Shown here piece after piece: positions 5,433 to 6,227 of a stretch of DNA of 64,000 nucleotides (positions are counted from its first letter, which is position 1; every line of letters starts with the position of its first letter). The stretch is from the sequence record PV714129.1. One strand, given 5' to 3'. The stretch comes from Escherichia phage Mizar. Position numbers and translations under genes: made by a program. The notes under the pieces are model-generated. The model was not told the origin of the DNA. It ran no database searches and was given only the letters and a program-made list of their open reading frames with translations.

Positions 5433-5630
5433 TTAGCAAGAATAACTAGACGATACCCAGCCTTGAACAGTGATACTATTGTTGGATAATGAGATCGCGT
5501 TCTGGAGATTCAGACCTGCGTTATCTTCAATCCACAATGTAACTTCTTCACGCTCTTCGGTTGCAATCTGGAACAGGTTTTCCAGGGCAGCTACTGCCGT
5601 ACGTACAGCACAATCTAATTCACGAGACAT
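5433..5630 (-). CDS. hypothetical protein, C-terminal QGWVSSSYSC (paralog family member C)
   Basis: 65 aa ORF; shares C-terminal motif with the two upstream ORFs. Confidence 0.45.
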   Translation of the reverse strand: MSRELDCAVRTAVAALENLFQIATEEREEVTLWIEDNAGLNLQNAISLSNNSITVQGWVSSSYSC

Positions 5631-5639
5631 ATGATTTCC

Positions 5640-5912
5640 TTAACAAGTGTGAGAAGATGCAACCCAACCACCATCTTCAAGGCTCAGGTTGTAGTCATAT
5701 TGGTAAACGTCAGCCCATTCAGCCTGGCCGTTTTTTGTACAACGTTCAAGATCGGCTTTAAGATGTCCGGGTGAATGATAGGTTCCACCCATGCCATAAG
5801 CTGGATACAAGTTGAATGTTGTGTTTTGTTTATTAGCAATTTCTTTGGCAGCCTCAATAGCTGCATAGATTTTTGCTACAGCTTCAGCCAGTTCGGTTTG
5901 TTCTTTAGACAT
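5640..5912 (-). CDS. hypothetical protein, C-terminal GGWVASSHTC (paralog family member B)
   Basis: 90 aa; alignable with 5922..6227 (YG-G-TY--PG core and C-terminus); ATGs coupled via TAAGGAA(A)TCAT(T)ATG junctions. Confidence 0.5.
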   Translation of the reverse strand: MSKEQTELAEAVAKIYAAIEAAKEIANKQNTTFNLYPAYGMGGTYHSPGHLKADLERCTKNGQAEWADVYQYDYNLSLEDGGWVASSHTC

Positions 5913-5921
5913 AATGATTCC

Positions 5922-6227
5922 TTAGCACAGCGCAGAAGAGGAAACCCAAGCACCTTCAGTAATAACGTAACCATTACCTTCACGCTTAACATCGCCACCA
6001 TTATTTTCAATTTCATTTTTCATCCACTGGGATACGATTTCACCCTTAGGATAATAAGTACGACCACTACCATAATCACCTACAGAAAATGATACGGCAT
6101 ATTGGTCTGCGATCTTTGTTGCTTCTTCTTCGATACGTTCAGCTTGATTCAGAAGTTTATAAATTGCATCTGAAGCGGATTTGGCATCATTAAACTCTGG
6201 TACTTTAATTTCGATAATCTTACTCAT
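5922..6227 (-). CDS. hypothetical protein, C-terminal GAWVSSSALC (paralog family member A)
   Basis: 101 aa; paralog of 5640..5912. Confidence 0.5.
   Translation of the reverse strand: MSKIIEIKVPEFNDAKSASDAIYKLLNQAERIEEEATKIADQYAVSFSVGDYGSGRTYYPKGEIVSQWMKNEIENNGGDVKREGNGYVITEGAWVSSSALC

Follow-up and report, generated by a model that had tools for sequence, protein, structure and literature searches.

Small phage proteins with a cysteine-ending tail are encoded beside a predicted nucleotidyltransferase

Introduction

What is the function of three small adjacent genes of Escherichia phage Mizar whose products end in the same short tail closed by a cysteine? The genes lie in a 64,000-nucleotide stretch of this phage (sequence record PV714129.1), which was analysed at its full length and is called the window here. 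An annotation made from the letters alone (the sequence-only reading) had described them as a local expansion of three tandem paralogues; all three open reading frames (ORFs) were found at the positions and with the endings given there, on the minus strand. ORF A (5922..6227; 101 amino acids (aa); RB69ORF139c type) has the core YGSGRTYYP and the tail GAWVSSSALC; ORF B (5640..5912; 90 aa; RB69ORF137c type), a canonical member of the family described below, has the core YGMGGTYHSPG and the tail GGWVASSHTC; and ORF C (5433..5630; 65 aa; RB69ORF136c type) has the tail QGWVSSSYSC and an N-terminal helix, and is without the YG-G-TY core. The 4.8-7.0 kb stretch of the window is 97-98% identical to RB69-like T4-type phages (Mosigvirus; Shf125875, APCEc01, HX01 and others), and the A-B-C region lies downstream of tRNA genes among the e.2-e.8 genes, every one of them on the minus strand.

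The chief clue to the function of A, B and C is a gene that the sequence-only reading missed. About 0.3 kb downstream of C (C ends at 5433, the partner gene starts at 5095), on the same minus strand at 4139..5095, lies a gene for a 318-aa predicted nucleotidyltransferase (NTase; RB69ORF134c; Pfam DUF7277 and DUF7275; phrog_2141), which we call the partner. Across the loci compared, the tail proteins and the NTase make up a conserved two-part module, encountered almost only in phages. The explanation that we favour, at a probability of roughly 0.4, is that the downstream NTase has A, B and probably C as its partners or as substrate-like proteins, their tails serving as acceptor or docking sites.

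Results and Discussion

The three genes and the age of their duplication

A six-frame scan of the 64-kb window gave 7337 stop-to-stop segments, and the tail pattern W-x-[S/A]-S-S-x-x-C ended exactly three of them, the adjacent ORFs A, B and C; a C-terminal Cys occurred in just 9 of the 342 ORFs of at least 50 aa. The tails are encoded by different Ser and Cys codons in each copy, as had been claimed (A, TCC TCT TCT..TGC; B, GCA TCT TCT..TGT; C, TCG TCT AGT..TGC), which argues for selection at the protein level over recent copying of DNA. Compared with the close relative L006, synonymous to non-synonymous codon counts were 10:1 for A, 9:2 for B and 9:1 for C; these mostly synonymous differences, together with the differing tail codons, indicate that A, B and C are real genes selected at the protein level. 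The start of A overlaps the stop of the upstream e.3-like gene (ATGA). The A/B junction is TAAGGAATCATTATG and the B/C junction is TAAGGAAATCATATG, and the sequence common to both is a ribosome-binding site and spacer.

A and B aligned over their full length, with an invariant F, YG-G-TY, W and tail, and both matched phrog_899 (E 2e-22 and 2.5e-18). With the last 10 residues removed, they matched a hidden Markov model (HMM) of unrelated family representatives at E 1e-20 and 1e-19 (B with its tail, E 2e-25). These matches identify A and B as true paralogues, alike well beyond the last 10 residues and with homologues elsewhere in a large family. Their shared core had been given as YG-G-TY--PG, which is exact for B (YGMGGTYHSPG) and has to be loosened to YG-G-TY---G to take in A (YGSGRTYYPKG). 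ORF C fell into another PHROG than A and B, phrog_4882 (E 1.7e-36), and matched the family HMM through its tail alone (2.0 bits without the tail). In profile-profile comparison (hhalign), C with its tail was collinear with the family (93% probability, E 3e-7); tail-less C aligned weakly with B-type proteins, in the correct register over the N-terminal helix and first strand (P 0.0046, which beat 30 of 30 column shuffles, the best shuffle reaching P 0.016). Tail-less BLASTP in a database of 235 sequences gave one link, between a Klebsiella-phage orthologue of C and a B-type protein (E 4.5e-5). ORF C is probably a degenerate paralogue that has lost the YG-G-TY loop; the proposed kinship of all three genes stands for A and B, and for C in part, through its tail and a weak N-terminal similarity.

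The expansion itself is not local. The A-B-C order is kept in JS98-like (Dhakavirus), Marfa and other T4-type loci that were fetched, and tblastn added Enterobacter, Klebsiella, Edwardsiella and other enterobacterial phages. A shares about 63% identity with its JS98-type orthologue (alignment A2) versus 27-30% with B, and the duplications are therefore old; a recent local duplication was rejected because each copy has orthologues in other genera. Further copies, D and E, are present in some phages. The fourth paralogue of JS98-like phages, D (..HFHAGGEEYIP..GFWFSSSMSC), belongs to the family even without its tail (hhalign E 9e-10).

The Cys-tail family

Word-indexed homologue searches with A and B retrieved close relatives only, and full HMMER against 1.84 billion representative sequences was needed to recover the family: 585 clusters (50% identity) matched at E <=1e-3 and 60 at <=1e-10. 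Most of the 150 matches listed were of 65-145 aa, and the profile nearly always reached the last residue of the protein. The consensus begins with an N-terminal helix (..AE.IADE.G..F.F), followed by ..AYGMGGTYYP.., an acidic Trp/Ser-rich linker and the ending G-x-W-x-S-S-S-x-x-C; internal W-x-x-S-[S/G]-C copies occur in many linkers. Tail statistics were taken from 146 representatives of at most 50% identity, which also served for the HMM. Cys was the last residue in 135 of them and second to last in 8 more; in the 135, W-7 and S-4 were invariant and S-3 was Ser in 133. The terminal Cys was the sole Cys in 87 of the 146, and the median isoelectric point was 4.5. The Cys-containing C-terminal tail, singled out as conserved from three genes, is conserved above every other feature across a very large family.

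Searches of A, B and C against Pfam, NCBIfam and PADLOC gave nothing significant, with sub-threshold noise only (e.g., Peptidase_S78_2, E 0.004). In the AlphaFold model of A (predicted local distance difference test score (pLDDT) 91.6), a long helix packs against a small sheet; the last strand holds the invariant Trp, and S-S-x-x-C forms a short turn at the end of the chain. Mean pLDDT is 88 over residues 91-100 and falls to 64 at the final Cys. The small proteins are acidic alpha/beta domains of 7-11 kDa.

Other proteins bearing the tail were seen beside the family genes. An E type of about 75 aa, absent from the window, has two motif copies, W-x-N-S-S-C-YGE.. and a terminal W-x-P-S-S-C, and lies between the family genes and the NTase gene in 34 loci (e.g., ORFs of the L047 3893-4117 type; L004, 44RR2.8t ORF063c; L126 3371-3631). 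Proteins of 140-170 aa with unrelated bodies end in a short tail just upstream of the NTase (..NSDWASSRC, ..NWDSSTC, ..VDWDSSSMYC); large tail-bearing proteins of this kind are located at L108 3595-4843, L099 4467-4985 and L127 2462-2905. That unrelated larger bodies share the short tail suggests that it is a portable module.

Linkage of the tail genes to the nucleotidyltransferase gene

Family loci in IMG/VR were fetched by a degenerate DNA pattern for YGMGGTYY. Family HMM matches occurred in 70 of the 80 loci retrieved with the NTase; in these 70, every match was on the NTase strand and all but one lay upstream, within about 3 kb, and tail-only ORFs were found in several of the remaining NTase loci. 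Across 88 loci the tail motif was present in 210 of 635 ORFs in the 3 kb upstream of the NTase versus 1 of 508 downstream. At least one tail-motif ORF was found in 79 of the 88 loci, with up to five tail proteins per locus in the motif tally and six by HMM (L120). In the reverse test, the NTase was present in 17 of 17 core-pattern loci having enough downstream DNA. The window follows the same plan, with A, B and C upstream of and co-directional with the DUF7277+DUF7275 gene. The finding that one enzyme accompanies 1-6 small proteins with divergent bodies and a constant tail points to several substrates or docking partners sharing a recognition motif.

The pair was found in several T4-type genera, in Phapecoctavirus ESCO5, Pseudomonas Otagovirus phiPsa347 and Acinetobacter AbTZA1, and in jumbo contigs of 355-389 kb; Aeromonas phage 44RR2.8t has the same pairing at another genomic location, adjoining nrdD. 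Gordonia phages, Streptomyces phages and KVP40 have the DUF7275-like part only and no tail proteins. T4 is without the module, e.2 and e.3 being directly adjacent at the corresponding position. By tblastn of 50,697 phage records, A was detected in 397 and the NTase in 733, and the proteins matching the NTase, counted as one representative per 90%-identity cluster, exceeded 2,200. A search of 185,579 species genomes gave the partner 5 times, always in metagenome bins, and the module thus looks essentially phage-borne.

If the small proteins acted independently of the NTase, the tail might mimic or plug a site on a host protein and the linkage would be co-regulation only; alternatively, the proteins could be structural components of the virion. 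We consider this quite improbable. A few records call B a "tail completion protein" and the NTase a "prohead assembly scaffold protein", and the strong hairpin that follows C could uncouple the transcripts. Against this, same-strand adjacency is kept across unrelated phage lineages whose other neighbours differ, no neighbour gene besides the NTase being conserved across lineages, and it would be difficult to account for such adjacency if the genes were not functionally coupled. We rejected the labels "tail completion" and "prohead scaffold" as unsupported, since the partner has an NTase fold, no late motif lies within 3800-9800 and most records read "hypothetical".

One ORF separates C from the partner gene in the window, a tail-less 83-aa ORF (5131..5382, minus strand; phrog_3723). 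Its cluster (cluster 21) was present in 12 loci only; being kept only in close T4-type relatives, it probably lies outside the core of the module.

The predicted nucleotidyltransferase and its nearest relatives

In diverse IMG/VR loci the partner homologue is an ORF of about 300 aa that follows the family genes and begins MLLIGS.A...D.D. The model of the Mizar partner (pLDDT 92.5) has the Pol-beta NTase fold with G-[S/G], D-x-D and the third carboxylate all present, and residue conservation scored across 42 diverse homologues showed G6 S7, D25, D27 and E69 to be invariant, along with many residues of the helical C-terminal domain. The confident model and invariant catalytic residues together make the partner look like a catalytically competent Pol-beta-fold NTase. 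Its fold matches the MenT, ANT and LnuA enzymes, Pol-beta NTases that transfer a nucleotidyl group to a hydroxyl; Foldseek against the PDB was weak and pointed the same way (the NTase-like 5uvd, E 2.5e-3; MenT1, E 0.027). The partner and its profile, searched against PDB sequences, gave only a chance match to PsaB; the partner and the 42 homologues, searched against Pfam to E 10, matched DUF7277 and DUF7275 only, with no AbiEii/DUF1814; and the PADLOC AbiE models gave no relevant match to the partner. On the predicted structure, then, the partner is nearest to the MenT/AbiEii and antibiotic-NTase groups, and it is not a DUF1814 member at the sequence level.

This resemblance raises the main rival to the substrate model: the NTase would be a toxin-type enzyme that modifies tRNA or another RNA, directed against host translation, and the small proteins would regulate it as antitoxins do, binding the enzyme to shut it off or to set the timing of its activity, in the manner of MenA/MenT pairs. 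The 7.4-kDa MenA1 acts on MenT1 by inducing MenT1 autophosphorylation. Gene order, protein size, the N-terminal helix and the resemblance to MenT all speak for such regulation, whereas the multiple paralogues and the tail are left unexplained by it, and on balance we think it somewhat unlikely. The Cys-tail module also differs from the toxin-antitoxin pairs MenA1-MenT1, MenAT3 and AbiEi-AbiEii in having no sequence or HMM match to DUF1814 or AbiEii; MenAT-type pairs are located on bacterial chromosomes and the module in phages, the module has 1-6 paralogues per enzyme, and its NTase carries a large extra conserved helical domain (DUF7275) relative to MenT. A search for sequence or fold similarity between A, B or C and the MenA proteins found none, and the W..SS..C tail is without a counterpart in MenA proteins.

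In another proposal, the terminal Cys would sit on an exposed arm as a carrier of persulfide sulfur, an acyl group or a metal, as in SoxY, DsrC and TusE. The exposed arm of SoxY (GGCGG) and DsrC/TusE bears a reactive Cys that is C-terminal or adjacent to the C-terminus. In a variant of the proposal, the Cys would complete a metal site with invariant His, Asp and Cys residues of the NTase C-domain, and Ser-Ser would only shape the arm. The partner C-domain does have invariant H128, H174, H194, H198, D193, D195, C243 and C272; the Cys is last in 135 of 146 representatives and often the only one; and the fall in pLDDT at the end of the A model (88 to 64) would fit a mobile end. No structural match to SoxY or DsrC/TusE was found and no sulfur-transfer neighbours were conserved, and we regard a carrier or metal role as improbable. 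One gene near the module, the e.4-like membrane protein gene at 6562..6987 in the window (JK45_00138 in L001), bears the label "sulfurtransferase" in one record; other records call it hypothetical, Pfam gives nothing, and the label is probably an annotation artefact.

What the enzyme may do with the tails

In the explanation that we favour, the invariant Trp in the last strand would present a short terminal S-S-x-x-Cys-COOH element, as in the model of A, and the NTase would recognise this tail and act on it. The likeliest reaction would be the addition of a nucleotidyl or phospho-linked group to the hydroxyls of Ser-Ser, with the Cys thiol as a possible alternative site. As acceptor, the Ser-Ser pair would be the natural choice, and the terminal Cys may serve as a further group for reaction or recognition. 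Each modified protein would owe its particular target or role in the pre-late phase of infection to its body, which differs among the paralogues. We infer the physical interaction, the covalent modification, the acceptor residue, when the genes are expressed and what the module is for (taking over the host or countering its defences).

Counted in favour of this substrate-like role are the linkage, its spread, the several tail proteins per enzyme, the active-looking NTase, purifying selection, and the setting of the genes in a region free of late-promoter motifs with sigma-70-like matches upstream. The bodies of C, D and E diverge or lose the core while the tail stays, and this, together with the internal motif copies, fits a shared recognition or modification motif. 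Several observations weigh on the other side. Many of the linkage loci are T4-type relatives, and hence the counts given above are not phylogenetically independent; about 10% of NTase loci (L066, L091, L092, L097, L114) are without a tail gene within 5 kb; the spacing from Ser-Ser to Cys varies (W-x-x-S-S-x-x-C, W-x-x-S-S-C, W-x-S-S-x-C); and a small acidic helical protein upstream of a MenT-like enzyme also resembles an antitoxin-type regulator.

Transfer to a small neighbour has precedents. In GlnD/PII, GlnE/glutamine synthetase and MntA/HepT, an NTase-fold enzyme nucleotidylates a hydroxyl side chain of a small partner encoded nearby, and GlnD combines its NTase domain with a second catalytic domain. 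The holo-acyl carrier protein synthases of citrate lyase and malonate decarboxylase (CitX/CitD and MdcG/MdcC) are of the nucleotidyltransferase type; they couple a phospho-linked prosthetic group to an acidic carrier protein of about 100 aa, on a Ser. GlnD, GlnE and MntA modify Tyr, not a Ser-Ser..Cys tail, and no homology between these three systems and the Cys-tail module was detected.

A stronger version of the favoured explanation is that the NTase chemically modifies the W..S-S..Cys-COOH tail of small effectors as a phage-specific protein-maturation system, through Ser O-nucleotidylation, possibly followed by elimination and thioether formation, or through a nucleotide-linked Cys; we hold this version to be doubtful. 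If true, it would mean enzyme-armed effectors, used early by phages of Gram-negative bacteria against host targets or defence systems, and a C-terminal protein tag of a new kind, served by a dedicated enzyme.

A further explanation is modelled on peptide natural products: Ser nucleotidylation and elimination would give dehydroalanine, and the Cys would then add to it to form a lanthionine-type S-x-x-C ring, or would undergo decarboxylation of the aminovinyl-cysteine (AviCys) kind, the outcome being a C-terminal warhead. S-x-x-C at a C-terminus is the commonest ring pattern of lanthionine and AviCys peptides, and lanthipeptide termini place a Ser at the third position ahead of the final Cys; many linkers contain further copies of the motif, and one conserved enzyme is paired with several precursor-like genes. 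A is nevertheless predicted to be a well-folded domain (pLDDT 91.6) and not a leader with a disordered core, no LanB, LanM, LanD, radical-SAM or YcaO-type gene is conserved nearby, and we know of no Pol-beta NTase that serves lanthionine-type chemistry. The Ser-to-Cys spacing of 0 to 2 residues also counts against it, and its variation does not imply a single fixed ring chemistry. We find this explanation highly improbable. From SoxY, DsrC/TusE and the lanthipeptides alike, the Cys-tail module differs in showing no fold or sequence similarity, in having no cognate pathway enzymes nearby and in having a folded body instead of a leader peptide.

Expression of the locus

Some 60 nt upstream of A, within the 3' end of the e.3-like gene, the minus strand has a sigma-70-like promoter match (TTTACG-17-TATAAT; 6315..6287), and in one phage record the corresponding position is annotated as a T4 middle promoter. 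Sigma-70-like consensus matches in the region numbered 19, not above the 15.2 +/- 4.6 found in shuffles. The T4 late-promoter motif TATAAATA has 18 sites in the window (9803-9810 and 17 others) versus 7.7 expected, with none between 3800 and 9800. The sigma-70-like matches upstream of A and the absence of a late motif from 3800 to 9800 suggest pre-late expression.

Directly after C, a second promoter-like sequence (TTTACA-17-TATAGT; 5427..5399, minus strand) overlaps an 11-bp hairpin (element 5390..5427). The hairpin (at about 5390-5417; -18.2 kcal/mol; z -6.9; a stability equalled by 0 of 200 shuffles) is followed by no U-tract, and it is annotated as a terminator in phage SA79RD. The combination resembles the promoter/stem-loop cassettes known from module borders of T4-type phages. 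A transcript may end at this site, or transcription may start anew here ahead of the 83-aa ORF and the NTase gene.

Novelty and use in annotation

phrog_899, phrog_4882, phrog_2141, DUF7277 and DUF7275 are of unknown function in the libraries searched, which show no link among them. A literature search on these PHROG and DUF families, the tail motif and the enzyme found no paper on them and turned up only MenT papers; the NTase linkage and the tail signature appear to be undescribed. The module is common in therapeutic-type T4-like, Phapecoctavirus and jumbo phages of Escherichia, Klebsiella, Acinetobacter, Pseudomonas and Aeromonas, and despite this wide occurrence its components are labelled "hypothetical" or DUF. 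It could reveal a new protein modification, or a new phage control of a MenT-like enzyme, and would probably bear on how phages take over the host or counter its defences. It also supplies an annotation rule for hundreds of phage genomes, namely a tail-motif ORF upstream of a DUF7277/DUF7275 gene.

Further observations at the loci

The largest array of family genes seen was on L120, a 9.5-kb viral contig with six members, five in tandem upstream of the NTase (413-1901) and one downstream (3128-3421). In 14 of the 88 loci (L078, L079, L085-L090, L093, L095, L096, L103, L105, L126), a gene for a Ser/Thr protein phosphatase of the PPP type is found no more than about 4.5 kb from the NTase. These loci form about three sequence groups, two apparently of jumbo phages and one Phapecoctavirus-like. 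The phosphatase could bear on Ser modification, or its presence could be coincidence.

A second shared ending, ENFIKECR(G)K, closes both genes that flank the Cys-tail and NTase module. Four or five genes for small membrane proteins like e.2/e.3/e.4/e.5 end in (E/Q)(N/R/Q)-F-I-(K/M/T)-E-C-R, with differing synonymous codons; the sites of this ECR motif are on the minus strand at 2327-2344, 3504-3521, 6230-6247 and 6962-6979, with a weaker copy near 6590. The motif DNA overlaps the ribosome-binding site and start of the next gene, and this repeated junction may mark a point of recombination or insertion.
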